A stretch of 64,000 nt of DNA, taken from the IMG/VR virus record IMGVR_UViG_3300031992_000028; one strand, written 5' to 3'. Below, one piece after another: positions 18,956-37,062 of this stretch; position 1 is the first letter of the stretch; each line of letters opens with the position of its first letter. The position numbers and the translations under genes were made by a program. Source of the stretch: a virus. Taxonomy: Duplodnaviria; Caudoviricetes. Below the pieces are notes generated by a model. The model saw only the letters and a list, made by a program, of their open reading frames with translations, was not told the origin of the DNA and ran no database searches.

Positions 18956-19027
18956 AACTTATTTAAGGCCGTCACAACAAACAAAACAGCATAAGCCAGG
19001 ATAAAATTATATCTTGGCTTTTTTCGT

Positions 19028-19241
19028 GCCCCAAAACGCCCCGTTTTGCTTTTTGCCCGAAATTGGTACGTTTTCGTTTTTTAGCTTTTCTGAATTTGCC
19101 CCGTTTTCGTTACTGGCCAGATCCGCGATCCAGGGCGTCCGAAATTAGTACGTTTTCAAAAACCGAAATCACCCCAGTTTCAAAAAGCCGAAATCAGTAC
19201 GTTTTCAAAATAGCCAATTTGGGGCGATTTCGTTTTGGGGC
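19028..19241. repeat. Direct-repeat (iteron-like) cluster enclosed by an inverted repeat
   Basis: CCGAAATYRGTACGTTTTC at 19057, 19139, 19188 (variant at 19163); GCCCCAAAACG ... CGTTTTGGGGC flanks. Confidence 0.85.
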
Positions 19242-19327
19242 AGATAAAATACCTACTTAATATAAAAAGTGTCACAGAATGCGTTTGTGACATGTCTGTG
19301 ACTATTCTAAGCTTTTGCCATATAACT

Positions 19328-19617
19328 AAAAGAAAAGCGACGACTCAGAGCCTGGATTTAAGAGAGAGGTGATGGCTCGTTGTGTGTCGTCGCCGGCTAA
19401 GAGGACATTGTGGGTGACCGGTTAGCCTTGAAAGGAGGTAATTGTCATAAGGGGATTTGACTCGCTAAACTGCCCGAAACCTAATGACTTGATTCTGTTT
19501 GTGATTCTGTTTAAATTACGTATCGTTAGTTTTTTTGACACTCTATTGATTACCTATCGTTATACGTATCGTCTGAGGCATTCCTTTTCATTATTGGCAG
19601 TTTTTCGGTTGCCTCAT
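19328..19617 (-). ncRNA. Putative ~290-nt structured sRNA with several anti-SD motifs
   Basis: Minus-strand TTGTATAAT (19623-19631); hairpins; ATTACCTCCTTTC, GTCCTCTT, GCCATCACCTCTCTCTT; terminator GCGACGAC...GTCGTCGC-TTTTCTTTT. Confidence 0.65.
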
Positions 19618-20115
19618 ACTATATTATACAACTAAAAATTATTTTTTAACAACTTTTTTCAAATTTAGGCAATTTCAGCTTCACATGTGTGCGTGTGTGG
19701 CGGCGCGCCAGTATTCTTAAACGTTAGAAGAATACCGCGCGTGGCCATGTGCGTGCGTATACACCAAAGCTTTCAAACTAAGGCAATTTCAAATTGAGCT
19801 GATTTCAAACGCAGGTCGACTTTAGCTTATATATTTTTTTATTTAAATAAAATAAATATATAAGTTAAAAAGTGCTCAAAGTGGGTTAATTTGTAAAAAA
19901 AGTTAAAAAAACTATTTACAGCTATTTACTTTTGTGCTATAATATTGTTATAATGGGGAGTGTTTTTTTATAAAAAAATAAAAAAGCCCTTAAATTAGCA
20001 TAGTTCAGGCTGTATAATATAATAGGGAATAAAATGAAATTGTTCCAATTTCATTTATGTGTGCGCAAGCACACACGTGTAATACTAAAAAAATTCATTA
20101 CTAAATCAGGGTGTT

Positions 20116-20171
20116 TTTAATAATTTAATAAATTAATAATTTAATGATTTAATGTTTTAATAAATTATTAA
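20116..20171 (+). repeat. 7 x 8-bp tandem repeat (TTTAATRA)
   Basis: tttaataa tttaataa attaataa tttaatga tttaatgt tttaataa attattaa. Confidence 0.85.
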
Positions 20172-20347
20172 CACATAAATATATGTACATGAATTATCTA
20201 TATTAATTCTTAGCTAATATCATATAGCTATAGTAGCATAGCTTATAATAATAGCTTATATATAAGCTTTTGGCGCCCGCACACATATGTACATGCGTAC
20301 AGTAAGTACGGAATTAAAGTAGTTTCAAATTGAGGAGATTTCAAAAC

Positions 20348-20653
20348 ATGGCGAATCCAGAACAAAAGAAGTGACCAGTCATCACTTGTCCACATTGCGG
20401 TTATCAATATGCCCCAGCAGAGATATTCATGCCAGGAGATCTGATTGGCAATCCAGAACAAGTTGTTAGAGATGCACTTGGCAAAATCATCTACCAAGAG
20501 TATGATGAAGATAGTGAACCAGCACAAGTTGGGCACTACATCTGCGACGAGTGTGGAAAACCATTCATCGTAGAGCCAGTAATTACATATAAAGTTAAGA
20601 AAGAAGATGAGGCTAAAGATTTCAGTGACCTTTCAGCCAGCTTACTAGACTAA
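20348..20653 (+). CDS. Zinc-ribbon protein (TGA=Trp at codon 9)
   Basis: GAGGAG RBS and ATG 20348; CPHC...CDEC; the first CxxC is lost if TGA is read as stop. Confidence 0.75.
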
Positions 20654-20679
20654 TTCCAAGTCAGGGAGATTTCAGATAA

Positions 20680-22533: not shown

Positions 22534-22588
22534 AATATTGTTTACTTGTCATGCAAATCGCGTTATAATATTATAGAGAGGTAAAGTT

Positions 22589-23167
22589 ATGGGAAGAGAT
22601 ACATTAAAAGTTATGGGTGCTTCAAACCACTGTGATGAAGAACGTTCTAAGTTAGATTACTATGGAACTGACCCTCGTTCAACTAAAGCTTTATTAGCAG
22701 TAGAACAATTCGACCACGAAATTTGGGAACCATGTGCTGGACACCACTTAATGGTTAATACACTTATCGAAGCAGGATATCATGTGTTAGCTACTGACAT
22801 CGCAGAATATGATGGTGTTCAACATGCTAAGATGAATTTCCTAGACGTTGAAGGAAGTTGGGATGGAGATATCATTACTAACCCACCATATGGACTATCA
22901 ACTGAATTTGCAGTTAAAGCATTAGAGTTGGTAAAACCTGGACATAAAGTTGCGATGTTCCTACGAACCTTATTCTTAGAAGGAACAAAGAGATATGAGA
23001 AACTCTTTAAGGAAAACCCACCAAAAACTGTTTATGTCTTCACAAATCGTCAGGTGTCTGATAAGAATGATGACTTCAACAAAGGTTCAGCAGTTAGTTA
23101 TTCCTGGTTTGTCTGGGAAAAAGGTTATACTGGACCAACACAAATAAAGTGGATAAGTTCTAAGTAA
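22589..23167 (+). CDS. DNA amino-methyltransferase (N6-adenine type)
   Basis: IWEPCAG and IITNPPY motifs. Confidence 0.85.
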   Translation: MGRDTLKVMGASNHCDEERSKLDYYGTDPRSTKALLAVEQFDHEIWEPCAGHHLMVNTLIEAGYHVLATDIAEYDGVQHAKMNFLDVEGSWDGDIITNPPYGLSTEFAVKALELVKPGHKVAMFLRTLFLEGTKRYEKLFKENPPKTVYVFTNRQVSDKNDDFNKGSAVSYSWFVWEKGYTGPTQIKWISSK

Positions 23168-23218
23168 AATTAGAACTTTTTTATTTACTTTATCTATATT
23201 GTATGTTATAATATAGTT

Positions 23219-23392
23219 ATGAAACAGAAGATTAAGATTATTGACAAAGTTACTGGAAAGACTCTTGAAAAAGAAGTAGAAATTCGAAATCAAGATCATT
23301 TCAATGTGCAATTAAAAACTCGTGCACATATTTTTCGTAATCGTAAAAAATATAATCGTAAAATTAAACATAGACAGAAAGAAGAGGAATAA
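23219..23392 (+). CDS. Small basic protein with ArfA-like C-terminus
   Basis: 57 aa ending HIFRNRKKYNRKIKHR; own early promoter, leaderless. Confidence 0.6.
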   Translation: MKQKIKIIDKVTGKTLEKEVEIRNQDHFNVQLKTRAHIFRNRKKYNRKIKHRQKEEE

Positions 23393-23395
23393 AAA

Positions 23396-23824
23396 ATGGA
23401 AATGGAACAAATTGATTTATCAGATCCAAAGAAATTTTTTGAAGAGCTTGTAAAGAAAGCATTAGAAGGTAAACAATCTAATTTCGAATTTATCAGAAGC
23501 TATGGTATGCTTTCTGTTGCAAGACTTTATAGAAAAGGAACCAAGAGGGTTGCAAAAGTATTTAAAAATTTATGTAAAGAAATTCTTGACAATTATTCTA
23601 AGTTAATTATTACAGATGAACAAAAAATTGATATGCTATTAGCCTATAAACAATTTGAGTCCTGTAGAGATTATTATTTAAAGGAATATGCAATCGCGAA
23701 AGATATGATTTCAGAATATCGAACATATGTATTTAGTGGTCATATACTTGAAATGCTCTCTGGTGGTTATAGGTCTGATTATGAGTGTGTAGATTATAGA
23801 AAACTACCTTGGAAACTATTTTAA
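23396..23824 (+). CDS. Hypothetical early protein
   Basis: GAGG RBS. Confidence 0.7.
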   Translation: MEMEQIDLSDPKKFFEELVKKALEGKQSNFEFIRSYGMLSVARLYRKGTKRVAKVFKNLCKEILDNYSKLIITDEQKIDMLLAYKQFESCRDYYLKEYAIAKDMISEYRTYVFSGHILEMLSGGYRSDYECVDYRKLPWKLF

Positions 23825-23836
23825 AGAGGAGGCTAT

Positions 23837-23989
23837 ATGGAAACAAAAATTTTAGAGCTTACTAAAGATGAAGCTGAGATGCTAGAATCTTATTTATTTA
23901 GAAAACAGATAAATTTAGAGAATGCAAATTTAACTGATTCGAAATGCTACCCACTAATTTGTAGTATCAGAGAAAAGTTAAAAAAGTAG
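23837..23989 (+). CDS. Hypothetical protein (50 aa)
   Basis: GAGGAGG RBS. Confidence 0.65.
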   Translation: METKILELTKDEAEMLESYLFRKQINLENANLTDSKCYPLICSIREKLKK

Positions 23990-24040
23990 TTTACATTTAC
24001 GCACTAATGTGTTATAATATTATTAGAGGAGAATAATAAT

Positions 24041-24250
24041 ATGAAAGTTCAAAGTTCAACAATTTCAGACATTGATAGAGAAGTAATTAAAGGCGAGTTA
24101 TTCTTAAAAGTTACATTTACAAATGGTAGAGAATATCTTTACGAAGGTGTGCCAGCAAATGTATATGAAGAATTCTTAACTTCAGAAAGTAAAGGCAAAT
24201 TCTTACACGAGAATATCGTTGGCCGATATAATTATTCAAGAATTAAATAA
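24041..24250 (+). CDS. KTSC-domain protein
   Basis: VQSSTI...L.VTF.NGREY.YEGVP..VY..F..SESKGKF. Confidence 0.85.
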   Translation: MKVQSSTISDIDREVIKGELFLKVTFTNGREYLYEGVPANVYEEFLTSESKGKFLHENIVGRYNYSRIK

Positions 24251-24337
24251 AAAAACTATTTACAAATAACCGAATTTGTGTTATAATAATAGTGTAAGGT
24301 GGAATGGCGACCACCTAAAAAAACGGAGGTAAACAAA

Positions 24338-24694
24338 ATGGCTAAAACTTACATGACTGGTTGGGGTATGCGTGGAGAGCGCACCGCAAGAGGCGGACGT
24401 GACGGAGTTCACTGTTCAGCACAATCTTATGACGGTTCAGTAATCGTCAGCAATCGCTATGTCAAAGATGACAATGGCAATGAACACTTAGAGATCAGAG
24501 TTGGAACAAACGACGGATCAAGTTGTTATTCTGATTGGAATTCACCAGATTTCATTGGAACTCTTGATGAATTCAAGGCACTCTTACAACTTCGTAAAGA
24601 CATTAAAGAAGGTAAAGTGTCTGTTGTTAGACATCGTGATCCTGATGGTTCAAAGAAACTTAAGAAACAAATGGCCTATTTAGGCATTAAATAA
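24338..24694 (+). CDS. Hypothetical early protein
   Basis: GGAGGT RBS; own promoter and terminator. Confidence 0.75.
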   Translation: MAKTYMTGWGMRGERTARGGRDGVHCSAQSYDGSVIVSNRYVKDDNGNEHLEIRVGTNDGSSCYSDWNSPDFIGTLDEFKALLQLRKDIKEGKVSVVRHRDPDGSKKLKKQMAYLGIK

Positions 24695-24794
24695 TGACAT
24701 CCTCTCTTTCTGAAAAGTTGGTCTGTAAAAAGATCAACTTTTTATTTACTTTTTTTCAAAAACATGTTATAATAATAGTAGAGAGGTGAGAGAT

Positions 24795-25211
24795 ATGAAA
24801 GATAAAGAATTAGCAAAACAAGAATATCTTGAAATGATCAAGCAGTCCTGGACTTGGGCTAAACTTACAGAAGAGGAAAGAGAAAAGTTTTCTGAGCTAT
24901 TGGAACATCCTTGTTCAGCAGTAGTCATTAAAGGAAACTACGAACAACGTTGGGAAGCATGCGAAGCTTTATACCACACTTACTTAGAAGGGCTTGGATA
25001 TGACCCACTTGAGTGGAGAGAAGCTCAACCAACTGTTTCTACATTCTATGAGTTAAACTATAAGACTCATGGCGAACCAGTGCCACCACTTCAAATAACA
25101 AATGAAGTTCAAGCAAAGCGTTTGGCAAAAGCAGCAACCATTATGAATGGAAATACAAATGTTTCATTAACTAAAGTTGATTTAGTTACTACAAAAGTGA
25201 GGTTAGACTAA
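24795..25211 (+). CDS. Hypothetical early protein
   Basis: GAGAGGTG RBS; TTTACT..TATAAT promoter. Confidence 0.75.
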   Translation: MKDKELAKQEYLEMIKQSWTWAKLTEEEREKFSELLEHPCSAVVIKGNYEQRWEACEALYHTYLEGLGYDPLEWREAQPTVSTFYELNYKTHGEPVPPLQITNEVQAKRLAKAATIMNGNTNVSLTKVDLVTTKVRLD

Positions 25212-25213
25212 TT

Positions 25214-25744
25214 ATGTTAAAAGAATATAAAATTAAAGTAACTTCAGTAGATTACAGCATTACTTACGAAGACCTTAACTTCGACCCATTTGATTCTGTT
25301 TTCAATAGCGATGATGATATGGACGAAGCAGAGAGACAAGCTGATGAAGAAATTGCTAAGATTAAAGCAGAATTGCCACAAGAATTAGAATTGGAAATTA
25401 CTTGTGAACCAGAAGACCTTGAGGACGAAATAGCTGATGCCATTAGTGATGAGACTGGTTGGCTTAACAACTCATTTACTTATGAAATTATCAGTGAAGA
25501 AGATGCAGGAGGCCACTATAATGAAGATGGCTACTGGGTGGCTGATGATGATGACTATGAAGAAGATGAAGAAAGTGCATCAGACTTCTTTGAAAATATC
25601 GAAATTGAAGTGAAAGGTCATACAGTGTATTTGGCGCACGACGGTAGTAGTGGTTGTGAGTATGAGTTCAAGAGCAAAGATGAACTAAAACAAATCATTG
25701 CTGACTATGTTGCTGACGTAATTGACTACGATTACGAAGACTAA
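25214..25744 (+). CDS. Highly acidic hypothetical protein
   Basis: D/E-rich ORF with RBS. Confidence 0.75.
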   Translation: MLKEYKIKVTSVDYSITYEDLNFDPFDSVFNSDDDMDEAERQADEEIAKIKAELPQELELEITCEPEDLEDEIADAISDETGWLNNSFTYEIISEEDAGGHYNEDGYWVADDDDYEEDEESASDFFENIEIEVKGHTVYLAHDGSSGCEYEFKSKDELKQIIADYVADVIDYDYED

Positions 25745-25829
25745 TAAAAAATTAAGTAAATTGTGTAAAAACAGTTTACTTTTTTTCATATTTGTGATAT
25801 AATAATAGTATAAGAGAGGTAATTAAAAT

Positions 25830-26345
25830 ATGGAATTAAATGGAAAAACATTAGAAGAAGTTCTAAACACTGAATTAGTTGGTAAGGATGTTGGTTATTC
25901 ACATTGGAACTTTACCGGCGCATTGATGAAAGTTATTCGTATCTTAGCAAAAGATGCTGGCTTAAATGAGTTAGACTTTAGTTATAAAACACAAGGCACT
26001 AATTCAGTGTATCTCACATACAAAGGTGTAAGTTTTGGCGATGCTACATTTCAAAAGCAAAAAGGTAAATATCATTATGGAAGTTATGAATGGACTTTCA
26101 AAAAAATATTTGTTAACTTATGGAATGAAGACGGTTATTCAAGTTACAAAGGTTTAACTTTCTTAGAAATGATTGCTAAGATCAATGAGGAGTTAGATGT
26201 TAAGAAAACTAGAGAGCAAGCCAAACTTGAACAAGCAAAACAAATTTTTCAACTGATTAAAGAAAAAATTGGTGCTAAAGACGATTACGAAGTTAGTTAT
26301 TTCATTGAGTATATGAATAAAAACAGATATTCACTTCGTCAATAA
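25830..26345 (+). CDS. Hypothetical early protein
   Basis: GAGAGGT RBS; own promoter. Confidence 0.75.
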   Translation: MELNGKTLEEVLNTELVGKDVGYSHWNFTGALMKVIRILAKDAGLNELDFSYKTQGTNSVYLTYKGVSFGDATFQKQKGKYHYGSYEWTFKKIFVNLWNEDGYSSYKGLTFLEMIAKINEELDVKKTREQAKLEQAKQIFQLIKEKIGAKDDYEVSYFIEYMNKNRYSLRQ

Positions 26346-26437
26346 TTCTTATAAAAATTTAAGTAAATTCTTCAAAAAAGGGTTTACTTTTTTATTAAAA
26401 TATGTTATAATTATAATAGAGAGAGGTTAAGAGAACT

Positions 26438-26767
26438 ATGAAAAAATACTTAATTCATTTTATGAGTGTTGATACCCCAAGCGTTGAAGACGATGGTATT
26501 GATGCAGGAACTGGTTTTGGAATTTTAGACAAAACCTTTGACACAAAAGAAGATGCTGAAAAGTATCTTGAAGAAACTTTGATTCCAGAAGACCAAGCCA
26601 ATTTGGAAGATTGCTACGGAATTACTGATGATCCTGAACTTGCTGACAGTTATGAGTTTTCTGTTGAAGACGGTAGTTATGATAGAAAGCAATTAGTTGT
26701 TTACGATAAGTTTGACGGAAATGAACTTAATACAACTATCTACGAAGTTGTGGAGGTTGAATTTTAA
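26438..26767 (+). CDS. Acidic hypothetical early protein
   Basis: GAGAGGT RBS; own promoter. Confidence 0.75.
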   Translation: MKKYLIHFMSVDTPSVEDDGIDAGTGFGILDKTFDTKEDAEKYLEETLIPEDQANLEDCYGITDDPELADSYEFSVEDGSYDRKQLVVYDKFDGNELNTTIYEVVEVEF

Positions 26768-26940
26768 TGAGAACAGTTTATATTGTCGTTAAAGACGGAA
26801 TTATTCAAGATGCTTATGCAGACCATCTCACTGATTTAGTGGTATTAGATTATGATACCCAAGATGAAGAAATGATTAAGCAACTTGATAAAGAACTTGC
26901 TAAGATTAAAGAAAGCAATGATTGTATTGAAATTCTATAA
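26767..26940 (+). CDS. Hypothetical protein (57 aa)
   Basis: GGAGG RBS; TAATG coupling. Confidence 0.65.
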   Translation: MRTVYIVVKDGIIQDAYADHLTDLVVLDYDTQDEEMIKQLDKELAKIKESNDCIEIL

Positions 26941-26953
26941 AGAGGAAATACAT

Positions 26954-27205
26954 ATGGAATTCGGAAAATTAGAACAAGAAGAATTTGAAAAAAGATGTGA
27001 AGAAGTATTTGACACTCAAGAAGATGAAGAATACTATGGAATTCGCATTGAAGACGACGGTCAAGTTTACATTGAGATGGGCGAGACTGGAAGCAAGGCA
27101 GAAGGTTTTAAGTGGGTTTACTTTGATTACAAACCTGATATGACAGAAAGACCAGAAGCATTAGATTACTTAATGGGAAAGAGAGACGATTTCAATGATT
27201 GATAA
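26954..27205 (+). CDS. Acidic hypothetical protein (ends TGA-TAA)
   Basis: GAGGA RBS. Confidence 0.7.
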
Positions 27206-27461
27206 TGTTGTTTATGTTATTGTAGATTGTTGCAGTGGTGAAGATTACAGCACTGACGATCCAACAGTATTATTTGTTACTAATGATTTAGAAACTGGAA
27301 TTCAATTCTTTGAAAATGAAATTGAAAACTGGGAAGATGGAATGACTGATTTCGACAGCCACAGAGAAATTCATGAAGATGGAAAGATCATTTATGAATG
27401 CACTGACTTTGAAGGTGATTCACATAGAATCTTAAAGTTAGTTAAAACAATAGTTGAATAA
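27195..27461 (+). CDS. Acidic hypothetical protein
   Basis: ORF track; in operon. Confidence 0.7.
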   Translation: MIDNVVYVIVDCCSGEDYSTDDPTVLFVTNDLETGIQFFENEIENWEDGMTDFDSHREIHEDGKIIYECTDFEGDSHRILKLVKTIVE

Positions 27462-27468
27462 AAATTAA

Positions 27469-27504
27469 AAAAGCCGTTTACAAATGCGGCTTTTTATGTT
27501 ATAA
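27469..27504 (+). promoter_or_regulatory. Overlapping terminator and early sigma70-type promoter (representative of many)
   Basis: AAAAGCCG-TTTACA-AATG-CGGCTTTTT-ATGT-TATAAT; the -35 box lies inside the hairpin. Confidence 0.8.
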
Positions 27505-27531
27505 TATTAATAGAGAGTTGAGGTAATTACT

Positions 27532-27981
27532 ATGAATAAAAAGAATATTGTTACAAAAGAAAACATTGCTAAAGTTGCTGGTTGGTTAAAGACAGCTTGT
27601 GATGACTTTGCAAATAATGATGCAAGCGGTTGCTATAATTTCCCACTATCTGATGACTTAGTATTGGCAGTTGGCTGGTCTGATGGTTATGACATGGCTG
27701 ATACTGATATTATCAAATCTAAAGAAGGTCAAAGACAACATGGTTCTTGGGTTTGTGGTTGGGCAGTAAATGCGGCAGTTAAAGTTAGAAATGACTTCGA
27801 TTGTGCTGACTTCGATATGTTAAACTATCCTTGCTATAATGATGGTGAATGCTGGGACAGTGGAATTTCCATGAAACCAAATCAAACTCGTAGAGAGTAT
27901 CGTAGAGACGCTCGTTGGTTCTTAGAAACATTTGTGTCTATGACAAATGCTCACAAGAGAGGTGAAATTAGTTATGAGTAA
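27532..27981 (+). CDS. Hypothetical early protein
   Basis: GAGGT RBS; 6 Trp, all TGG. Confidence 0.75.
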   Translation: MNKKNIVTKENIAKVAGWLKTACDDFANNDASGCYNFPLSDDLVLAVGWSDGYDMADTDIIKSKEGQRQHGSWVCGWAVNAAVKVRNDFDCADFDMLNYPCYNDGECWDSGISMKPNQTRREYRRDARWFLETFVSMTNAHKRGEISYE

Positions 27982-28144
27982 AGAAGAGACATATACAATT
28001 ATTGTTCATTTTTCTGGACATGAAGATCAAGTTCGACATGGTGTTGATAAATTAAATGCTAGTATAATTCCCGCTGAATTCGAAATAGCATTCCCAAAAG
28101 AATTCAAGAGTGGAAAGATGAGTATTGAAGTAATTAAAGAATAA
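27974..28144 (+). CDS. Hypothetical protein
   Basis: GAGGTG RBS. Confidence 0.65.
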   Translation: MSKEETYTIIVHFSGHEDQVRHGVDKLNASIIPAEFEIAFPKEFKSGKMSIEVIKE

Positions 28145-28204
28145 ATTAAATAACCCGTTTACAGAAGCGGGTTTTTGTGTTATAATAATAATGAGGAAAA
28201 TAAT

Positions 28205-28741
28205 ATGATTAAATTAAAACAAGTTAGTCCTGAAAATGTTTGGTATGAATTCGAAGACGAAGTTGACTTTGATCAATACAAAGATAAAATGGTTATCACT
28301 GGGAATAGAGACTTCAAGTCTATCGGTGATGATACTTTAATCAGTGTTGTTAAAGGCGATTACTATGATGAAGATCAAACTTTAGTCGAGAATCCTGATG
28401 GTAGTTGCTACGAAGATACTATCGGATATGACTACGAAACAGCAGAAGAATTAGCAAAGCTTTCTGGTAAGAAAAACTGGGTGGAAGGCGACTTCCGCGG
28501 ATACTCACAAGGCGATTGGCAAACTATCTGGTTCGTTAAAGATGAAGTTACTCAAGATGAAATTAAATACATGGAAAACTTCTACATGGGCAAGATGAGT
28601 GAATTTCATGATGAAGATATGTGTTGCTACTATGTGCCCGATGATGTAGTATGGAAAGGCAAGAAAGAAATTTGTGACTACCTTGGGCTCAACCCCGATG
28701 ACACAGAGATTTATGATGAAAATGAAAATTTAGTTGAATAA
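28205..28741 (+). CDS. Acidic hypothetical early protein
   Basis: GAGG RBS; RGYSQGDW. Confidence 0.75.
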   Translation: MIKLKQVSPENVWYEFEDEVDFDQYKDKMVITGNRDFKSIGDDTLISVVKGDYYDEDQTLVENPDGSCYEDTIGYDYETAEELAKLSGKKNWVEGDFRGYSQGDWQTIWFVKDEVTQDEIKYMENFYMGKMSEFHDEDMCCYYVPDDVVWKGKKEICDYLGLNPDDTEIYDENENLVE

Positions 28742-28797
28742 ACTATTTACATTTTCTATTTTTCGTGTTATAATATATTTGAAGAGAGGTAAGAAGT

Positions 28798-29202
28798 ATG
28801 GGCTTTAATAAAATTAGAACCATTAGAGTTAGCGAAAGAGTATTTGATATTGTCTGTGAGGCTTTAGATAATGAGGCAACAGAAAATTATGTTAAAATTT
28901 CCGGATACTTAGAATGCTTTAACAATTGCAGAGAACAAGGTTATGTCCTTCATGTTGATTCAGTTGATTGGGACAATCCTAATAAAACTAAAAAAGATTT
29001 ATGTGTTTGGGCTTTTGAAGCAAGAAGTTCAGATGAGATCGTCGTAAGTTGGCAAACTGAATATCCACACAACGGAATGTTCAGCGAAGAAACTTATAAA
29101 GAACGCAGAAAATATTTCCATTATGATGAACTTCAAAAAGCAGCAGACTTTATTATCGATTTAGTTAAAGAACATTTTGCCAATGAATTCAGAGGTGAAT
29201 AA
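28798..29202 (+). CDS. Hypothetical early protein
   Basis: GAGAGGT RBS; own promoter. Confidence 0.75.
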   Translation: MGFNKIRTIRVSERVFDIVCEALDNEATENYVKISGYLECFNNCREQGYVLHVDSVDWDNPNKTKKDLCVWAFEARSSDEIVVSWQTEYPHNGMFSEETYKERRKYFHYDELQKAADFIIDLVKEHFANEFRGE

Positions 29203-29203
29203 T

Positions 29204-29539
29204 ATGAAAGACGAATTTGACGAATTATTAGAAGAATTAAATTTAGAAAACTTTGGTGAAGACTTCGATGTTAAGCCAGCTATATATCAAGTGTGGATGT
29301 TAGGCTACAATGAAGATGAAGCTATTACTGATTATGAAGTAATGGTTAATGAATCTAAAGACGCCGAATATGCAGTGGAATATGCTAAGAAATTCGTAGA
29401 AGAAAAACGTTATGAGTCTTCAGCGCCATTCCCAGAAGATGTTGCTTACATCGAAATATTAGTCGAGACTGTTGTGGATTTTGAAGATCACACAGAAAAT
29501 GTCGGAACTTTATTTACAACAACTGTAAAAGTGAAATAA
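29204..29539 (+). CDS. Acidic hypothetical protein
   Basis: GAGGTG RBS. Confidence 0.75.
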   Translation: MKDEFDELLEELNLENFGEDFDVKPAIYQVWMLGYNEDEAITDYEVMVNESKDAEYAVEYAKKFVEEKRYESSAPFPEDVAYIEILVETVVDFEDHTENVGTLFTTTVKVK

Positions 29540-29597
29540 ACTATTTACAAATTAATTTTTACATGTTATAATATAAATGACAATGGAGGACTGATTT

Positions 29598-29882
29598 ATG
29601 GTAAAGTCAAAACATTTAGGAAAGAAATTTGGTCGCTGGACTGTTACAAGAATTAGCAGAGAACGTGATGGACACTATCGTTTCTATTTAACTAGAAAGA
29701 CAAGCGATGGCGCAATTAAGACTGTTGGTTTAACAAATGTTACAATGGCAAGATTAGCTCGTGGTGAAACTAGCATCACAACTTTGTTAAAGAACAAACA
29801 ATTCCAAAGAAACAAATTCCCAAGCAGATCTTATAGAAACTCTGTTTGGTATACTTACAACACAAACGGTAGCTTAGAATAA
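29598..29882 (+). CDS. Small basic hypothetical protein
   Basis: GGAGG RBS; LGKKFGRWTV N-terminus. Confidence 0.75.
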   Translation: MVKSKHLGKKFGRWTVTRISRERDGHYRFYLTRKTSDGAIKTVGLTNVTMARLARGETSITTLLKNKQFQRNKFPSRSYRNSVWYTYNTNGSLE

Positions 29883-29910
29883 CTATCGGTATCGAAAGGA
29901 GGAAGTTGCT

Positions 29911-30828
29911 GTGGCAAGTCAAACATTTAACAACTTCAAGAATTACGCAAATCAATTAGAGAAAGAACTTGGTATTAAATATGATGCTAAGCCTTATAAA
30001 GATACTATCAGGGTTATGCTTGATGGTTTTTGCAAAGCAATGGATGAAGGCGATGAACATCTTAAGAACTTATATATCAGTGGTTTAATCTTACGTCATT
30101 GGGATAAAGTAAAGAAACTTGCAGATAGTTGCCCTGGCATCGATCTTAAAGGCGAAGAGTTCGTCGACTGGGTTTACGAAGCAATTATGCTTGCTTGTGA
30201 ATATCGTAAATGGCAAAAAGACGAAAGTGTCAATGCTCAACAATGTATCAATCAATGTATTGAAACTATCAGGGTTAGACACTACTATGAATATAACTTA
30301 GACAAACACAAAGCGAACTACAATACTGTCTCTTTAGAAACCCCTGTTGGCGATGGAGACGATAATGGTGTTCAAAAAACTTTGATGGATACTATGCATG
30401 ATGAGAATGCGGAAGAAGCTGCTAGAGTAGCAGAAAGTAATAACGCTGCTCGACACATCGTTCAGATGTTTATCAACAAAAACAGAATTGTCGAAGCAAT
30501 TATCATGGACATCATTGCTTTTGGTGATACTGAAAAAATTACTAAACACATTAAACGTGGCATTGACGAAAATGGTGAGGCTTACAAGTATATAACTTAC
30601 ACACGTGAGTTCTGGAAGTTCAAAGCAGTCCAACTTCTTTCAAACTTGCCAGAAGACTACCAACAATACTTCCTTGAAAACTATTTAGTTAATACAGCAG
30701 CATTAGATGCAGCTTTAAACGTGCTTAGAAAGGCCAATAACAACAAATTATACCGTGAGTTAGATAAAAGCCTATCTGCAGCAAAAGTAATCCTACAAGC
30801 GTCTATGTGAGCTGAAAATAATAATTAA
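29911..30828 (+). CDS. Phage sigma70-like RNA polymerase sigma factor (divergent)
   Basis: Region-2-like LILRHWDKVKKLA..GIDL..EFVDWVYEAIMLACEY. Region-3.2-like VSLETPVGDGDD...TLMDTMHD. TGA at 30808, TAA at 30826. Confidence 0.65.
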
Positions 30829-30889
30829 AATAAAACAACCTTCCAAATTGGGAGGTTTTCATGTTGTATAATAAAGTGAGGATTTGATT

Positions 30890-31618
30890 ATGTGGTTAGA
30901 TATAATGAGCCAGTATAATACACTTCAAGTAAATATCAAATTGGCAAATTTACTTGGGTTAGAAGTTGCTACTTATTGGGCGGCATTGATGGATGTGTAT
31001 GCGAGAGTAGTGAATAAATATAAAGATGAGTTAGAAGCGAATTCAGGATATTTTGAACTCGACAGAGACTATATTACTAAGAGAACGACATTACAGTTAG
31101 ACAAACAGTTAGAGATCGATGCAGGACTCGGTAAACTTGGTGTGCTACAACATCGTAGCGAAAACGAACTGAATTGGATCACACTAGATGTAGAAAAGCT
31201 TTGTGCGATCTTAGTAGATGACAGTATCGATGCAATCAGAGATGTTCAACGCGTTTCTAAACTTAGACGAGAAGATACCGCTCGTGCCAAGAAAGCATCG
31301 GTTAGAATTAACTTAGTCGCAGCACTAAAAGAAACTGATCCAGATGTGCTTACTGCTTACAATAACTGGATCGATGCACTGTTAGAAGCTAAGAAGCCGA
31401 TTACTAGACAAGCTTTGGATATATACCAGAATAACTTAAACAATTATACTGATAATAAACAAGCGAAAATTAAAATTCTTGAGATTGCGACAACAAATGC
31501 TTACACTGAATTTGCATGGTCTATGAAGATTTACGAAAAAGATTATCGTGGCAATGGAACATTTATTGGTGTAAAGCAAAATAGAACTAGCGGAATTGAT
31601 CCGAATTCAGGTTTTTAG
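30890..31618 (+). CDS. Putative replication initiator / replisome-organiser-like protein
   Basis: N-terminal winged-helix-like LANLLGLEVATYW...GYF...KRTTL..Q pattern. Confidence 0.5.
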   Translation: MWLDIMSQYNTLQVNIKLANLLGLEVATYWAALMDVYARVVNKYKDELEANSGYFELDRDYITKRTTLQLDKQLEIDAGLGKLGVLQHRSENELNWITLDVEKLCAILVDDSIDAIRDVQRVSKLRREDTARAKKASVRINLVAALKETDPDVLTAYNNWIDALLEAKKPITRQALDIYQNNLNNYTDNKQAKIKILEIATTNAYTEFAWSMKIYEKDYRGNGTFIGVKQNRTSGIDPNSGF

Positions 31619-31630
31619 GAGAAATTTAGT

Positions 31631-31924
31631 ATGAATGAATTTATAGCAAGACGATCATTAGAAGAAGATGCACTTCTAGAATATATTTCGAAAGCAAGAG
31701 TGCTAGATGATCTGTATCATCGAACAGGTGAGTTAGAAGAAACTATTGAAGCGATGGATAAAAACATCGACGATGTTGAGGAAACTGGTTTAGATGAAAT
31801 TGTAGAAGCGATGTGCAAAGCTCGCAATGCACTAAATTTAGAAAGACTTGACCTCGAAATTCAAATTCACAAGTTAGAACTTTGGTTGGCAGAATTTGAA
31901 AGGATAAGACAAATAACCCGATAA
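31631..31924 (+). CDS. Coiled-coil hypothetical protein
   Basis: AGGAG RBS. Confidence 0.7.
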   Translation: MNEFIARRSLEEDALLEYISKARVLDDLYHRTGELEETIEAMDKNIDDVEETGLDEIVEAMCKARNALNLERLDLEIQIHKLELWLAEFERIRQITR

Positions 31925-31944
31925 ATTCGGGTTTTTATTTACGA

Positions 31945-32265
31945 ATTTAGTGTGGTTAGCGGAGCAGTCTAGCGTGATGATCAGGTAACTGATCTGTAAC
32001 ATGTGACTGTAACTTGTACGATGATCTGTAACTGATCTGTAAAATTTGTACGGTCTAGTGAAATCCGCACCGGCATCCTGACACACTAAACAGATGAATC
32101 AGGATACTGATCAGGCTTTCTAGTGCGATGTACAGTAACAGATACAGTAACCAGTGCGATGTATAGTGACAGACAGTAACGATACAGTACTGTGTAACTG
32201 GATTTAGATTCACTAGAACTTGAAAACAGGTTGATTTCGTGCATGTGTATGTGCGTTTCTTTTTA
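31945..32265. repeat. Non-coding GATC/TAGTG degenerate repeat array A
   Basis: GATCTGTAA x3, AGTGCGATGTA x2, CAGTAAC x3, CTAGTG. Confidence 0.7.
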
Positions 32266-32333
32266 ATTAAAAAAAGTATTTACAAATCTTTAGTATTGTG
32301 ATATAATATATATAGAGAGTGAGGAAAGTTATT

Positions 32334-32537
32334 ATGAAACCTATGACAGTTAAAAGATTAAAAGAACTTTGTGAAGAACAAATTAAAAAAGGTAATGGAG
32401 ATAAGATTGTTGTCCTAAGTAATGACGATGAAGGTAATGGTTATCACGAATGTTATTACGAGTTTACCGAAGACGTTGCTGGTAATGATTTATGGGGAAG
32501 TATTGAAAACCCACAAAGTAAAATAATTCTTGGTTAG
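32334..32537 (+). CDS. Hypothetical early protein
   Basis: SNDDEGNGY motif; GAGGA RBS. Confidence 0.7.
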   Translation: MKPMTVKRLKELCEEQIKKGNGDKIVVLSNDDEGNGYHECYYEFTEDVAGNDLWGSIENPQSKIILG

Positions 32538-32549
32538 GAGGAACTAATA

Positions 32550-32753
32550 ATGACAAGAGAAGAAAAATATAAGTTAATCGAATTACTCGAAAAACTTAGA
32601 GACGAAAGAATCTTAGAAGTTGCGAAAGACTACGACTTAACCGAAAGAGAAGTCCGTGAAAAGTTATGTAGAGAACCTGAAGAAGTCTATGAGATGGATG
32701 ATGGTGATAACTTACTTAACGGTATTGACATTGTGTTAGGTGTCTTAGAATAA
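32550..32753 (+). CDS. Hypothetical protein
   Basis: AGGAGG RBS. Confidence 0.7.
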   Translation: MTREEKYKLIELLEKLRDERILEVAKDYDLTEREVREKLCREPEEVYEMDDGDNLLNGIDIVLGVLE

Positions 32754-32839
32754 AAAAGTTTAAAGTAGACGTAAAAAAACGTTTACTTTTTCTTTTAAAC
32801 GTGATATAATATTTATAGAATAAAGAGAGGTAAAAAACA

Positions 32840-33292
32840 ATGCAAGGACCAAAAGAAAAATATAATGCTGAAAAAGTATTAGAAAGATTAGAAGCAATGA
32901 TTGAAAGAGGTTGCTCAAGAGAGATTAGACAAGTCTATGATGAACTATCAATCTTCGACTGGTGGCCAGAAAGATTAACTATCACTCACATGAAACAAAT
33001 GAGATCCTTCTTGAGAGAAGCAATCAAGTTAGGTTATACTGGTTATGTTTGCTTTAAAGTCGGTGCTTCTGGTTGCGCTAATGGAATGTGGGCACACAAA
33101 GAAGAAGGTAAGGTAGAAGGTAAAGACGTCTACTCACCAGATGGCGATGCTATCTACAGAAGTTTTACACCTGATTATACTTATTGGTCATTCAATAAGA
33201 ACGGTAAGTGGCTTCCAGATGGTGATACTCGTGGAACATATGACTCACTCAAAACTGCAAAGATGCTTGAAGAAGCACTTGCAAATGCCTAA
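32840..33292 (+). CDS. Hypothetical early protein
   Basis: GAGAGGT RBS; own promoter. Confidence 0.75.
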   Translation: MQGPKEKYNAEKVLERLEAMIERGCSREIRQVYDELSIFDWWPERLTITHMKQMRSFLREAIKLGYTGYVCFKVGASGCANGMWAHKEEGKVEGKDVYSPDGDAIYRSFTPDYTYWSFNKNGKWLPDGDTRGTYDSLKTAKMLEEALANA

Positions 33293-33370
33293 ATAAAAAA
33301 ACTAAAAAGAGGTAAAAAACTATTTACTTCTTTTTTATTTTGTGGTATAATATATGTAGAGGATGAGGAT

Positions 33371-33523
33371 ATGAGATACAACGTTAAAATTAAATTAAAT
33401 AAAGATACTATCTACGAAGTTGAAGTTGAAGCTGATAATGAAAAAGATGCAATGTGCTTCGCTTATGATCAAATGGAAATGGATACTTACGCAGAACCAA
33501 CTATGATTACGGAGGCTAAATAA
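33371..33523 (+). CDS. Hypothetical protein (50 aa)
   Basis: GAGGA RBS; EVEVEADNEKDA motif. Confidence 0.65.
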   Translation: MRYNVKIKLNKDTIYEVEVEADNEKDAMCFAYDQMEMDTYAEPTMITEAK

Positions 33524-33524
33524 A

Positions 33525-33845
33525 ATGAAAGCAAAAAACTATAATCAAGTATTGAGAGCTCGTGGTTATAAAGCGAGAGAGCTTAGCGAGTATGAAGGAA
33601 TTTGTATTTACGAGAAAGTTCATAAGTTTAACAAGATAGTTTGCTATGTTAAAAAAGACTCACATGGCAAAGGTCAAGAAATGACTTTCAATATCTATGG
33701 AACTATGACTACACCAAAAGATATGGTTGAGTTCAAAGAGCAAGAGTTTGATAGAAGTTATCTTGCTAAAGAAGCAAATGCAATTCACGATGCTTTTGAA
33801 AAACTAAAAGAATTAAAAGCCCCTAAACATTTATATTGTTTCTAA
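33525..33845 (+). CDS. Hypothetical protein
   Basis: GGAGG RBS. Confidence 0.7.
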   Translation: MKAKNYNQVLRARGYKARELSEYEGICIYEKVHKFNKIVCYVKKDSHGKGQEMTFNIYGTMTTPKDMVEFKEQEFDRSYLAKEANAIHDAFEKLKELKAPKHLYCF

Positions 33846-33914
33846 AAAATTACATTAGCCCATTTACAAAGTGGGCTTTTTGTGTTATAATATATATGTA
33901 AAGAGGATAAGAAT

Positions 33915-34211
33915 ATGAACTATAAAATTAAACAAATTAAAGACTTAGAAAATTGTGACTATGCTTTCGAGCACTACGATTGGTGCAAAGATAAGATCAA
34001 CTTGAACGACTATGAAGTTGTATATGAAGGCACAGTATCAGAAGAAAATGCTTCTAAAGGCGATAACTATGCTCTTGAAATGTTGTTCACAAAGTTCAAT
34101 ATTGCTCATCCAGAAGACTATAGAGGACACAGCTTATCAGTTTCTGATATTGTAGAACTTGATGGCAAGAACTACTACTGCGATGCATTTGGCTGGGTCG
34201 AATTAAAATAA
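33915..34211 (+). CDS. YodL-domain protein
   Basis: Y..VYEG...LE.LF.KFN..HPEDYRGHSLSVSDIV...YYCD.FG. Confidence 0.85.
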   Translation: MNYKIKQIKDLENCDYAFEHYDWCKDKINLNDYEVVYEGTVSEENASKGDNYALEMLFTKFNIAHPEDYRGHSLSVSDIVELDGKNYYCDAFGWVELK

Positions 34212-34281
34212 AAAAAGTATTTACAAATTAAATAAATAGTGTTATAATATAAATGTAAAGAATAAGAGGTAAATATATTAT

Positions 34282-34560
34282 ATGTCTAAAATTGTTAATC
34301 TTACAAAAGTTCAAGGTTGTTATTCAAAAGAATTAAGAGAAGCAACTTATGGAATTAAGTTATGCTTAAGAGAACCATCTGTTTCACTTCAAGATATGAA
34401 GAATTATGTTGAAGCAGTTATTGACCCAGCAAGTATTGATGCTGAGGCTAAAAAGAGATTTAGAAAAAACCTAAGCGAATGTAAAACAAAACAAGAAGTT
34501 GACCAACTATGTTATGATGCAGTTGTTCACGGAATGTATTATCGTAGAAAAGAAAGTTAA
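34282..34560 (+). CDS. Hypothetical early protein
   Basis: GAGGT RBS; own promoter. Confidence 0.7.
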   Translation: MSKIVNLTKVQGCYSKELREATYGIKLCLREPSVSLQDMKNYVEAVIDPASIDAEAKKRFRKNLSECKTKQEVDQLCYDAVVHGMYYRRKES

Positions 34561-34617
34561 TGAAAACGGCTTAATTTCGCCGTTTTTTTATTGTATAATA
34601 TAATGGAGGGTTATATT

Positions 34618-34833
34618 ATGAAACTCGACGAAGGAAAATTAACCTTAACAGAAACTGAACTCGCTGAAGTTAAAAGAGCAAATATGATGGCAAGTCCAAG
34701 TATTGCTGGTCTTTATTTACGCAGTTTTCTTAAAAATAAAAATTTAGTTGAAAATTTAGAAACACAACCTGATGTAAACTTTTATACTGAATGTATTCAA
34801 GCATACAGAAAAAAGAACTATGAAGTTATTTAG
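34618..34833 (+). CDS. Hypothetical protein
   Basis: GGAGG RBS after TTGTATAAT. Confidence 0.7.
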   Translation: MKLDEGKLTLTETELAEVKRANMMASPSIAGLYLRSFLKNKNLVENLETQPDVNFYTECIQAYRKKNYEVI

Positions 34834-34871
34834 TTGGCTAAATTAATTGCATAAAGGCAGGTGAGAATAGA

Positions 34872-35060
34872 TTGGCTTGTAAAGTTAAACTTAGAGAAGA
34901 CGAAACGACCGATGCTTTATTGGCTAGATTCAAAAGTCTAGTAAAGAAGTCTAACATCTTAGCTGACGTTAGAAAGCATGAGTTCTTCTTAAAGAAAAGT
35001 TTGAAAAGAAAACGTAAGTCTGAAGAGGCTCGTAAGTTAGCAAGAAGAAAGGGCAGATAA
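34872..35060 (+). CDS. rpsU: 30S ribosomal protein bS21 homolog
   Basis: V.LREDE..DALLARFK..V.KSNILADVRKHEFF.KKS.KRKRKSEEAR; preceded by TGGCTAAATTA. Confidence 0.9.
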   Translation: MACKVKLREDETTDALLARFKSLVKKSNILADVRKHEFFLKKSLKRKRKSEEARKLARRKGR

Positions 35061-35104
35061 ATTTCTGCTTTTTTATTTACAAATTTTTAGTATATGTTAT
35101 AATG

Positions 35105-35360
35105 TGATCATGATGAATTTAGTGCAAGATGAAATTTAGTGCGAAAGCTACAGATCAGAAGCTGCTCTTCTGCAGCTGCATCGATCTGTATTCTAGTGTG
35201 AATCACTACAGATCGTGGATACAGATTCATCTGCGATGTACGATCATGTCTAGTGAATCAGGCTACGATGTTGATGAAAACAGTACGATTCCGTGCGCTA
35301 GATAGTGAACAAAAACATGATCTGCAAAGTTTTGTTCGCAATTTCATGTAGTAAACTGTT
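35105..35360. repeat. Non-coding GATC/TAGTG degenerate repeat array B
   Basis: TAGTG at 35120, 35137, 35194, 35251, 35303; CAGAT/GATC-rich. Confidence 0.7.
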
Positions 35361-35416
35361 ACAAAAATTTGCAACAAAACGTTTACATCGAAACACTAAT
35401 GTGATATAATATAAGT

Positions 35417-35713
35417 ATGGAAGTAAAGATAACTAAACTTAACAACTTACAAATATGGCCAACTGGTTTTATTACAGTATCAGCGGTTCATTTTAAATTA
35501 GATGATGAAGATTATTTCTTGCATTACTCTGGCGAAGAATACGAAGACCATTTGACTTTATATAAAGGCAGAAACAAATGTCATCTTACTCGTATTAGTT
35601 CTTGCTATGGAACATTAGATGACTTTATTAAATTCACAAAAAAGCCAAGATGTTTAAAGTATGTTGATACAGAAAACTTTATTGAGAAGTTAAAAGAAAA
35701 ACATTTACTTTAA
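35417..35713 (+). CDS. Hypothetical early protein (leaderless)
   Basis: TTTACA..TATAAT immediately before the ATG. Confidence 0.7.
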   Translation: MEVKITKLNNLQIWPTGFITVSAVHFKLDDEDYFLHYSGEEYEDHLTLYKGRNKCHLTRISSCYGTLDDFIKFTKKPRCLKYVDTENFIEKLKEKHLL

Positions 35714-35755
35714 TTTAAAAGTGTGTTATAATATTAATAGTGAGGTAAGAAAGAA

Positions 35756-36130
35756 ATGATTGATAAACAAACATTAGAAAACTTTAGGCAAGACTTCAAT
35801 GAAGCAATGAAAGATTTAGAAACAAAGTATGGTTTTGTAATCGAACTTGGACGTATCACTTATACAGCAACAAGTTTCACCGGCAAACTCGAAGTCAATG
35901 AAGGTGATAGCAAAGACGACGTTAATGAAAAAGACTTCTATAAGTATTGCTCTATGTATGGCTTAAGTAAAGACGACTATGATAGACGTTTCACTTTCCA
36001 AGGCAATGATTACATTGTAGTTGGCATTAGACCAAGCAAACGCAAATACCCGATTTGTTGCCAGCAAGTTCAAAACGGCACCACTTATGGTTTCACCGCT
36101 GAGTGTGTCAAACGTTGCTTAGGCAAATAA
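35756..36130 (+). CDS. Conserved-looking phage hypothetical protein
   Basis: GAGGT RBS; GIRPSKRKYPI motif. Confidence 0.75.
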   Translation: MIDKQTLENFRQDFNEAMKDLETKYGFVIELGRITYTATSFTGKLEVNEGDSKDDVNEKDFYKYCSMYGLSKDDYDRRFTFQGNDYIVVGIRPSKRKYPICCQQVQNGTTYGFTAECVKRCLGK

Positions 36131-36207
36131 GAGAAGACTAAAACTTCTCTTTTTTATTTACATTGAGTGTGAAACATGGTATAATAATAGTAGGAGAAAA
36201 TATAACT

Positions 36208-36699
36208 ATGAACACTCTTGGAATTGAAAAAGAATACAAGATAATTAAAAAGGTTAGAAGAAAACTTTTGTTAAATGATAAGTTCGTCAACTACCTTCTA
36301 AAACAATTAAATAAAGGCAATTATGTTTATATGACGAGTTCACACTCATATGAGATAATTAGTCGTGAGTTGATTAAAGAACTTATTAAGAAAGCAGAAG
36401 ATAATGATAGATACTGGAACTTAGATTGTTTTGCTCAAGTGGCAGATTATCCTGAATACGAAGGCGTGCCATTTGAAGTTACTCATGCTAGTCCATACGA
36501 TCATCGTTGGCCTGGAGACTATGATGAAGATGCTTATGATGACTGGAAAGTAGATGCGATTAGTTTATCCGATTTACTATACGAAGACACTTGGCAAAGA
36601 GAACCTGTGTATGTAAAGCATCCTGAGATGTTTGACTTTGCTGATGAAGAAGTAATAGTAGAAGATGAAAAGTTAGAAGATACGAATTGTTGGTGGTAA
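36208..36699 (+). CDS. Hypothetical early protein
   Basis: AGGAG RBS. Confidence 0.75.
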   Translation: MNTLGIEKEYKIIKKVRRKLLLNDKFVNYLLKQLNKGNYVYMTSSHSYEIISRELIKELIKKAEDNDRYWNLDCFAQVADYPEYEGVPFEVTHASPYDHRWPGDYDEDAYDDWKVDAISLSDLLYEDTWQREPVYVKHPEMFDFADEEVIVEDEKLEDTNCWW

Positions 36700-36705
36700 A
36701 AGAAT

Positions 36706-36993
36706 ATGAAATACTTTTGGGTAATTGAAACAATTGATAACGAATATAGTTCAAGTTATAAATATATAACTGATAGTAGAGAAGATGCCGAAGCACATAG
36801 AATGGATTACTGTGGTTGGTATTGTCAAACTGGCGATTGTCATATAAAAAAGATCGACCAGAAGTTTCGTGTCGTAGAAGACATTGATTACTGGCGTGGA
36901 GAAGTTTGGGAACACAAAGTAAATGTCTACGATGACAAGGGAGTTTATGTTGACATCAAATACTTAATAAAGAAAGGCAAGAAAGTTAAATAA
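36706..36993 (+). CDS. Hypothetical protein
   Basis: ORF track; in operon. Confidence 0.7.
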   Translation: MKYFWVIETIDNEYSSSYKYITDSREDAEAHRMDYCGWYCQTGDCHIKKIDQKFRVVEDIDYWRGEVWEHKVNVYDDKGVYVDIKYLIKKGKKVK

Positions 36994-37062
36994 ACTATTT
37001 ACTTTTCTTTTAATCCGTGTTATAATATATATGTAAGAAAGAGAAGAGAGGTAAATAAAGTT

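Follow-up and report, generated by a model that had tools for sequence, protein, structure and literature searches.

A conserved minus-strand RNA gene with anti-Shine-Dalgarno motifs, a candidate regulator of early translation in a large TGA-recoded phage

Small RNAs (sRNAs) of Firmicutes that carry several C-rich regions (CRRs) pair with G-rich sites on mRNAs, RoxS for example having four such regions (PMC5419742). In Staphylococcus aureus, RNAIII represses several mRNAs through hairpin loops, among them stem-loop 13 near or at the terminator, and in phages P1 and P7 the loops of the c4 antisense RNA pair around the ribosome-binding site (RBS) of a phage mRNA, blocking its translation (PMC12197685). 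In phage T4, RegB cuts GGAG in early Shine-Dalgarno (SD) sequences and RegA binds initiation regions (PMC3014915). Here we describe a locus in a 64,000-nt stretch of DNA (hereafter the window) from a virus of the Caudoviricetes (IMG/VR record IMGVR_UViG_3300031992_000028), which very probably holds a genuine non-coding RNA gene on the minus strand, transcribed against all other genes. From its conserved CU-rich motifs and their complements, we put at roughly 45 % the probability that this RNA is a trans-acting anti-SD riboregulator, which would occlude SD-dependent initiation on phage early mRNAs and possibly on that of a sigma-like gene. To our knowledge, most of the trans-acting regulatory RNAs described so far come from prophages and have host genes as their targets, and we know only of proteins, such as T4 RegA and RegB, that time phage development by competing for SD sites.

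The RNA gene, its promoter and its terminators are located as follows.

19328..19617, minus strand: non-coding RNA gene, ~290 nt here and 233-290 nt in relatives
19623..19652, minus strand: sigma-70-type promoter of the RNA gene (TTGTTA at 19652-19647, an 18-nt spacer, TATAAT at 19628-19623)
19328..19394, minus strand: terminator T1 (outer stem 19394-19386 with 19344-19336; inner stem GAGCC/GGCUC)
19373-19353, minus strand: apical loop of T1, 21 nt, bearing motif C, AUCACCUCUCUCUU
19259..19302, minus strand: second terminator, T2 (GUCACAGA..UCUGUGAC, then a U-run), conserved in relatives

An earlier note on this DNA had proposed a minus-strand promoter followed by a hairpin-rich sequence of ~290 nt without a credible open reading frame (ORF) and by a GC stem/U-run terminator, and all of these elements were found where it had placed them. 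The promoter -10 region contains TTGTATAAT (19631-19623, minus strand), which is present in all homologues; the body of ~290 nt has a minimum free energy of -63.2 kcal/mol (z = -2.1 versus shuffled sequences); and the GC-rich stem of T1 is followed by UUUUCUUUU, with the U-run at 19336-19328. The 5' end of the RNA was taken to be the A of AUGAGGC on promoter spacing only. T2 lies 75-105 nt beyond T1, and in relatives it has differing stems with G-U pairs compatible only with the minus strand; it is a candidate backup terminator, or else a candidate end of an alternative RNA of ~360 nt. No ORF was conserved on either strand when the window and the homologues were compared. The 5' end has the layout TATAAT-ATAGT-AUG, as in leaderless-looking genes, and a leaderless mini-ORF at this AUG was rejected, as neither the short frame nor its peptide is kept among the homologues. 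The RNA gene sits in a gene-free stretch from 18956 to ~20430, with plus-strand terminators at 18993-19048 on one side of the gene and early promoters beginning at 19915 on the other. Every credible gene of the window has plus-strand orientation. Since none of them overlaps the RNA gene, it is not a cis-encoded antisense RNA; with its own predicted promoter, intrinsic terminators and no apparent coding capacity it has the make-up of a trans-acting sRNA. The earlier description of this locus as the only minus-strand unit is consistent with the window but falls short of proof, and two further minus-strand TTGTATAAT sites lie inside plus-strand genes, without a terminator.

Relatives were fetched via the downstream SNF2 helicase and via homologues of the 354-aa upstream protein, which gave eight distinct homologous loci (L002, L028, L035/L036, L037, L038/L039, L040/L041, L042 and L043) from rumen or gut metagenome assemblies. 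The same minus-strand unit was present in every fetched syntenic gap (8/8 distinct homologues), with the TGTATAAT box, the 5' end (A)UGAGGC and the terminator kept, and with many substitutions as well as indels of 1, 2, 5, 20, 23 and 49 nt in the body. Identity of the RNA to close relatives is 75-83 %, about equal to that of the upstream gene and below that of SNF2, for which reason the idea that the gap outdoes its neighbours in conservation was dropped. Over seven aligned homologues, 82 of the 290 positions (28 %) are invariant. The predicted scaffold comprises the following further elements, given together with the two CU-rich motifs that lie between them.

19574..19616, minus strand: 5' hairpin P1, UGAGGCA (19616-19610) with UGCCUCA (19580-19574)
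19467..19603, minus strand: long-range helix P2, AAACUGCC (19603-19596) with GGCAGUUU (19474-19467)
19449..19456, minus strand: motif A, a variable CU-rich element, AUCCCCUU here and CACCUCCGCCUCCUU, UUACCUCCAAC or UCUCCUU in relatives
19429..19446, minus strand: motif B, GACAAUUACCUCCUUUCA, a linker before the last two hairpins
19395..19427, minus strand: hairpin Hh, GGCUAA/UUAGCC, with a loop insertion specific to this phage

P1 forms in 8/8 homologues; compensatory changes of the A-U/G-C kind and an alternative register (UGUGAGG/CCUCACA) occur among them, and P2 likewise forms in all of them, two compensatory changes being seen in L043 (AAGCUGUCA/UGACAGCUU). Because the 5' strand of P2 falls in the loop of P1, the two helices together have a pseudoknot topology. 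P2 encloses a variable middle domain with two to three GAUAC repeats (19571-19520); across this domain (19520-19571) and its homologues a short repeat is present 2-4 times, as ACGAUACGUA in close relatives and as AAGAUAY in L002 and L043. A further 5' pairing, GACCGAA with UUCGGUC, was rejected as confined to the L035 group. In the 3' portion, the Hh stem covaries in relatives (GGGGC-UUCG-GUCCC, GGGU-UUCG-ACCC, GGGC..GCCC) and T1 shows compensatory changes in five of the nine outer-stem pairs and three of the five inner-stem pairs. Across the alignment of this 3' domain, 96.3 % of cells are paired and 11/19 pairs have compensatory changes, values that none of 500 shuffles reached, whilst slid partners were ~40 % paired. 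Searching related phages with a covariance model, a check that the earlier note had put forward, was done with a model built on the 3' domain only; it returned a single copy at each locus except that of the most distant homologue, L042, which it missed, with no second copy in the window and nothing in G001. A weak G002 match (E = 0.4) was set aside.

The G-U pairs and the cUUCGg tetraloop are compatible with the minus strand only, which bears on a reading without any RNA gene, in which the conservation comes from plus-strand features (small ORFs, SD sites) or from DNA-binding sites. Read on the plus strand, motif B is a perfect RBS, through which a plus-strand ORF of 33-36 aa runs in L035, L037 and L038; that ORF, however, is broken in the window, L040 and L043, and in the window the plus-strand SD is followed by TTG-TCA-TAA, without a usable start codon. 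Furthermore, the G-U pairs turn into A-C mismatches on that strand, and plus-strand terminators stand upstream at 18993-19048, all of which makes such an origin of the conservation highly improbable. At the level reachable by comparative sequence analysis, the conserved promoter, the covarying helices, the pairs possible on the minus strand only and the second terminator thus argue for a real RNA gene.

None of the families in Rfam 15 (including RsaE, RNAIII, C4 and 6S) matched at gathering thresholds anywhere in the window, and with E-values up to 10 over 18956-20890 only three spurious weak matches were seen, all outside the RNA. A nucleotide search of 50,697 phage records gave no match to the window, no relative of the flanking 354-aa gene turned up in IMG/VR, and a metagenome scan with SNF2 yielded a single contig with sufficient upstream DNA. 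Scanning IMG/VR with a 16-mer returned 25 loci, all of which except L002 were ordinary RBSs; the combined pattern of motifs B and C was found in L002 only in IMG/VR and in none of 185,579 prokaryote genomes. The best protein matches of the window are to Firmicute phages at ~36 % identity, and no tRNAs were found in it. As judged from these searches, the RNA is a new family that is limited, in the collections covered, to one group of large TGA-recoded rumen phages.

The three anti-SD motifs named in the earlier note are all present in the window sequence, at 19443-19429, 19408-19399 and ~19377-19361, and the RNAs of this family have 2-4 CU-rich motifs per molecule. Motif B holds the longest invariant run of the alignment, GACAAUUACCUCCUUUC (19446-19430), with 17 consecutive positions unchanged in the seven aligned homologues, the next-longest run being of 6; its core, UUACCUCCUUU, is kept even in distant L042, where the remainder is unrecognisable. 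As read from the aligned sequences, motif A precedes it in most homologues. Motif C (CACCUCUCU) lies in the apical loop of T1 in every homologue, with a predicted unpaired probability of 1.00 in 7/7, and within it the AUCA part varies (CCCA in L040, CUCA in L002). The earlier note had itself named burial in stems or lack of conservation as grounds for giving up its proposal: motifs B and C are conserved and predicted to be exposed, but AUGUCCUCUU (19408-19399), the second of its motifs, lies in the Hh loop insertion found only in this phage and is not conserved. A conserved seed, predicted to be exposed on a covarying scaffold, is what would be expected of a trans-acting sRNA. The textbook 3' tail of Firmicute 16S rRNA, GAUCACCUCCUUUCUA, which may differ from that of the host, is identical to the motif B core at ACCUCCUUUC and has AUCACCUC in common with motif C; as such, the two motifs resemble overlapping halves of this tail.

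Candidate targets of these motifs are the following.

22575..37052, plus strand: candidate loop C targets, eight AGAGAGGT RBSs, of genes 22589, 24795, 25830, 26438, 27974, 28798, 32840 and 37063
29893..29910, plus strand: candidate motif B target, leader CGAAAGGAGGAAGUUGCU of the sigma-like gene 29911-30828, the sole other GAAAGGAGG in the window

The early block of the phage (~22.6-39.4 kb) is divided into numerous short units, all preceded by a promoter of one uniform type, TTTAC(A/T)-17 nt-TGnTATAAT. The TGnTATAAT element occurs at 31 sites (8.6 expected), 30 of them on the plus strand, and between 22000 and 38000 there are ~20 near-identical early promoters (A-rich tract, TTTAC(A/T), 17 nt, TGnTATAAT), each serving one to two small genes with very short leaders. 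Early RBSs often read AGAGAGGU(A/G)A and begin only 6-13 nt past the -10 box, a spacing that would put them at the mRNA 5' end or close to it; early genes of relatives have the same TGnTATAAT-N-AGAGAGG arrangement. The exact complement of loop C, AGAGAGGT, occurs nine times against 1.69 expected, a count reached by none of 100 shuffles. All nine lie on the plus strand, eight as RBSs of early-block genes, situated 7-10 nt ahead of the gene starts and for the most part a few nucleotides past an early promoter, and the ninth as part of the RNA gene itself. The matches to the leaders of 25830, 27532, 24795, 26438 and 29911 quoted in the earlier note are each real, the first four being with GAGGTAATT (before 25830 and 27532), AGAGAGGTGA (before 24795) and AGAGAGAGGT (before 26438).

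Duplex energies were computed for each motif with leaders of 28 nt. For motif C, the top 11 leaders were all early, and motif C outperformed the generic 16S tail by at least 2.9 kcal/mol on eight early leaders and one other. Composition-matched shuffles of motif C or B paired equally well with the window leaders in only 3-4 of 300 trials, so that complementarity to initiation regions exceeds chance, though these leaders give similar results with the generic 16S tail. Duplex scans in sliding windows, run with RNA segments of 30-46 nt, produced long-interior-loop artefacts and were discarded. The position of these sites also allows the same pairing to have the opposite outcome, with the RNA shielding the 5' ends of early mRNAs from a 5'-to-3' exonuclease of the RNase J1 type and thereby stabilising or activating them. 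At least four early genes have an AGAGAGG that starts 6-9 nt past the -10 box, that is at the predicted mRNA 5' end, and RoxS protects yflS mRNA likewise through a C-rich region (PMC5419742). In yflS, however, the SD is not part of the paired 5' end, whilst the pairing predicted here covers the SD itself and would normally block initiation, and we consider protection unlikely.

Apart from its occurrence in the RNA gene, the complement of the motif B core, GAAAGGAGG, is found at a single place in the window, the leader of gene 29911. Of all leaders, this one gives the most stable duplex with motif B (-19.7 kcal/mol and 14 pairs with one mismatch, the 16S tail reaching -15.8), and it is conserved in the relative L044. 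Gene 29911 is called sigma-like on weak leads (RpoD_Cterm, E = 0.006; Atlas neighbours with Sigma70_r2) and had no match in Pfam or PHROGs; its reading frame (29911-30828) has a near-terminal in-frame TGA. Pairing of the GAUAC repeats with the same leader was rejected, the geometry being wrong and the match not conserved in L044.

The RNA gene with its conservation and structure, together with the complementarity and predicted exposure of its motifs, leads us to infer transcription, pairing in vivo, repression and its timing along the following lines. The scaffold of 5' hairpin, long-range helix, hairpin and terminator would display CU-rich anti-SD sequences in the motif B linker and the motif C loop, and these would base-pair in trans with the SD regions of mRNAs. 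Loop C would pair with AGAGAGGU sites at or near the 5' ends of short-leader early mRNAs, and motif B with GAAAGGAGG-type sites, above all the leader of the sigma-like gene. Such pairing would occlude binding of the 30S subunit, and synthesis of early proteins would drop as the stable RNA accumulates.

Several observations weigh against this anti-SD mechanism. The alignment used for covariation was fitted to the structure of the model itself, and motif B has a predicted unpaired probability of 0.49-0.76, leaving it only about half unpaired. Any CU-rich sequence pairs with strong SDs, and the generic Firmicute 16S tail shows the same bias towards early genes, because these have strong GAGGU-type SDs. 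The difference between early and other leaders in the energy of motif C minus that of the 16S tail is not significant overall (p = 0.11); the enrichment for early leaders anticipated in the earlier note thus holds for the top 11 leaders of motif C and is not significant overall as a gain over the 16S tail. As neither loop C nor the early SD varies among homologues, there is no co-variation of RNA and target to read. For motif B, no near-perfect target (≤ 3 mismatches) exists in the 64-kb window or in a 146-kb relative, and its invariance reaches well past the SD complement. Of the earlier proposal that the RNA occludes SD-dependent initiation, what stands is a conserved RNA with two conserved motifs predicted to be exposed and with complements concentrated at early RBSs; a discrimination of early genes beyond the strength of their SDs does not follow from these data.

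The invariance of motif B over 17-18 nt in the absence of a near-perfect target suggests an extra or different constraint, and motif B may be under additional constraint of this kind, e.g. from a protein partner or a tertiary contact. It also fits a decoy role, in which the RNA imitates the 16S 3' tail for a protein such as the phage bS21, a ribosome-maturation factor, or a nuclease or toxin attacking the anti-SD region. The AUCACCUC that motif C has from the textbook tail and the bS21 encoded by the phage agree with a decoy, but the AUCA of motif C is not conserved and the gene neighbourhood points to no protein partner, making it distinctly unlikely. Mimicry of the AUCA bound by Era was rejected on the same variability of AUCA. 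Given that its core is the generic 16S anti-SD, motif B could furthermore pair with any GGAGG-type site, and an abundant RNA of this sort might act on the host, titrating host mRNAs with strong SDs and letting leaderless or weak-SD phage genes escape; about ten phage genes look leaderless, and each RNA has 2-4 CU-rich motifs. Stoichiometric titration of all host SDs would be demanding, however, loop C is tailored to AGAGAGGU, a form found in phage early genes, and the exact 18-mer complement of motif B has only nine scattered matches in the 185,579 prokaryote genomes, which is chance level. We therefore regard a general shut-off of the host as unlikely, too.

If the RNA does act on early mRNAs by occluding their SDs, the class of its promoter bears on when it would do so. 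The RNA promoter is not of the early type and belongs to the TTGTATAAT class, a second promoter class of the phage with 15 scattered matches in the window (2.3 expected), which often drives leaderless-looking genes (TATAAT-ATA(A/G)T-ATG). The genes concerned and bS21 are given below.

4976, 12439, 17403, 23219, 35417, 41251, 44356, 51312, 52360, 57907: candidate leaderless genes (about ten), with TATAAT and an ATG 5-7 nt later
34872-35057, inside the early block: phage bS21 (PF01165, E = 1.7e-14), with a TTG start and an AGGUGA SD

Several of the candidate leaderless genes stand behind TTGTATAAT directly past a terminator hairpin. Of the earlier statement that many middle genes are leaderless, the window bears out some ten leaderless-looking genes, but not their assignment to a middle class. 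Were the TTGTATAAT class to be later than the early class, the RNA would appear at the time when early synthesis should stop. A more far-reaching version of the anti-SD mechanism, which we hold to be doubtful, is that a 16S-tail mimic expressed from the TTGTATAAT class outcompetes ribosomes for the early AGAGAGGU SDs and the GAAAGGAGG site of the sigma-like gene, with leaderless genes and those with other SDs escaping. The RNA would then be an RNA-only counterpart of RegA/RegB and, together with bS21 and TGA recoding, would form a translation-level temporal programme. With regard to recoding, the SNF2 helicase ORF (20680-22395) has 501 aa under code 11 and, with TGA read as Trp, is lengthened at its upstream end to 571 aa; in relatives it is called at 571 aa in L037 and others, and at 501 aa in L035 and L036. 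In L002, a distant relative, an extra ORF of 237 aa (3221-3934) that contains five in-frame TGA codons separates the RNA gene from the upstream gene.

The surroundings of the RNA gene form a gene-free hub of 1.5-1.9 kb that is retained by all relatives. At 19057-19236, beyond the RNA terminators, there are four to five iteron-like direct repeats (CCGAAATnAGTACGTTTTCAAAA), conserved in relatives, which possibly mark an origin or a regulator-binding array. Between the RNA promoter and the plus-strand early promoters, positions 19684-19761 form a large GC-rich palindrome (GTGCGTGTGTGGCGGCGCGCC...), and GC content is 0.38-0.39 in 18-22 kb as opposed to ~0.31 elsewhere. Additionally, a 29-nt motif of the TTTCAAATTGAGGAGATTTCA type is present in four copies (19649-19677, 19779-19807, 20315-20343 and 20646-20674), one of which abuts the -35 region of the RNA promoter, and two of which overlap the RBSs of the first two plus-strand genes past the gap. 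Such a hub, with its iteron-like repeats (19057-19210), palindromes and AT-rich DNA, would suit a local role for the RNA, either in priming or R-loop formation at a nearby origin or in insulating divergent early promoters, the CU-rich motifs then being incidental. The repeats do adjoin the RNA downstream, but two terminators come first and would end the RNA short of them, and GC skew shows no switch here. Moreover, priming has no need of a covarying hairpin-plus-terminator scaffold with an invariant exposed motif, and a purely local function thus appears improbable.

Should the RNA act in trans on early SDs as proposed, a large phage would be timing its own development through RNA competition for SD sites. 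The family is well defined, having a promoter, a covarying scaffold and an invariant seed, and is small enough for direct tests. In phages that encode bS21, it also opens a way to study the ordering of SD-led, leaderless and recoded genes.

By prediction, the phage RNA is of the Hfq-independent Firmicute type and is like RoxS/RsaE of Bacillus and Staphylococcus, in which several C-rich single-stranded regions or loops pair with G-rich sites, including extreme 5' ends (PMC5419742, PMC6158497). It differs from them in having no sequence or structure similarity (no Rfam match), in carrying CU-rich, 16S-tail-like seeds (ACCUCCUUUC, CACCUCUCU) in place of CCCC, and in being encoded by a phage whose own early genes are its likely targets. 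RNAIII pairs with SD sequences through a C-rich loop, and the phage RNA is predicted to resemble its 3' domain in using hairpin loops near or at the terminator as pairing elements; there is no homology between the two, and RNAIII is a quorum-sensing effector of the host that also encodes a peptide, in contrast to the phage RNA with no conserved ORF. With c4 it has in common that a phage-encoded RNA pairs, here by prediction, through loops around an RBS. Unlike c4, which acts on one operon (ant) in the immunity of temperate phages, it has a class of early genes as candidate targets, in a large phage, and it gave no Rfam match. The likeness to T4 RegB/RegA concerns the proposed functional logic only, namely the shut-off of many early mRNAs at SD or initiation regions, with proteins as the agents in T4 and an RNA here. 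What is new in this comparison, as far as the sequences allow it to be read, is an RNA family in a large phage with 16S-tail-like seeds that match the SD form of the phage's own early genes, and with a predicted mode of action akin to that of the known sRNAs with multiple CRRs.

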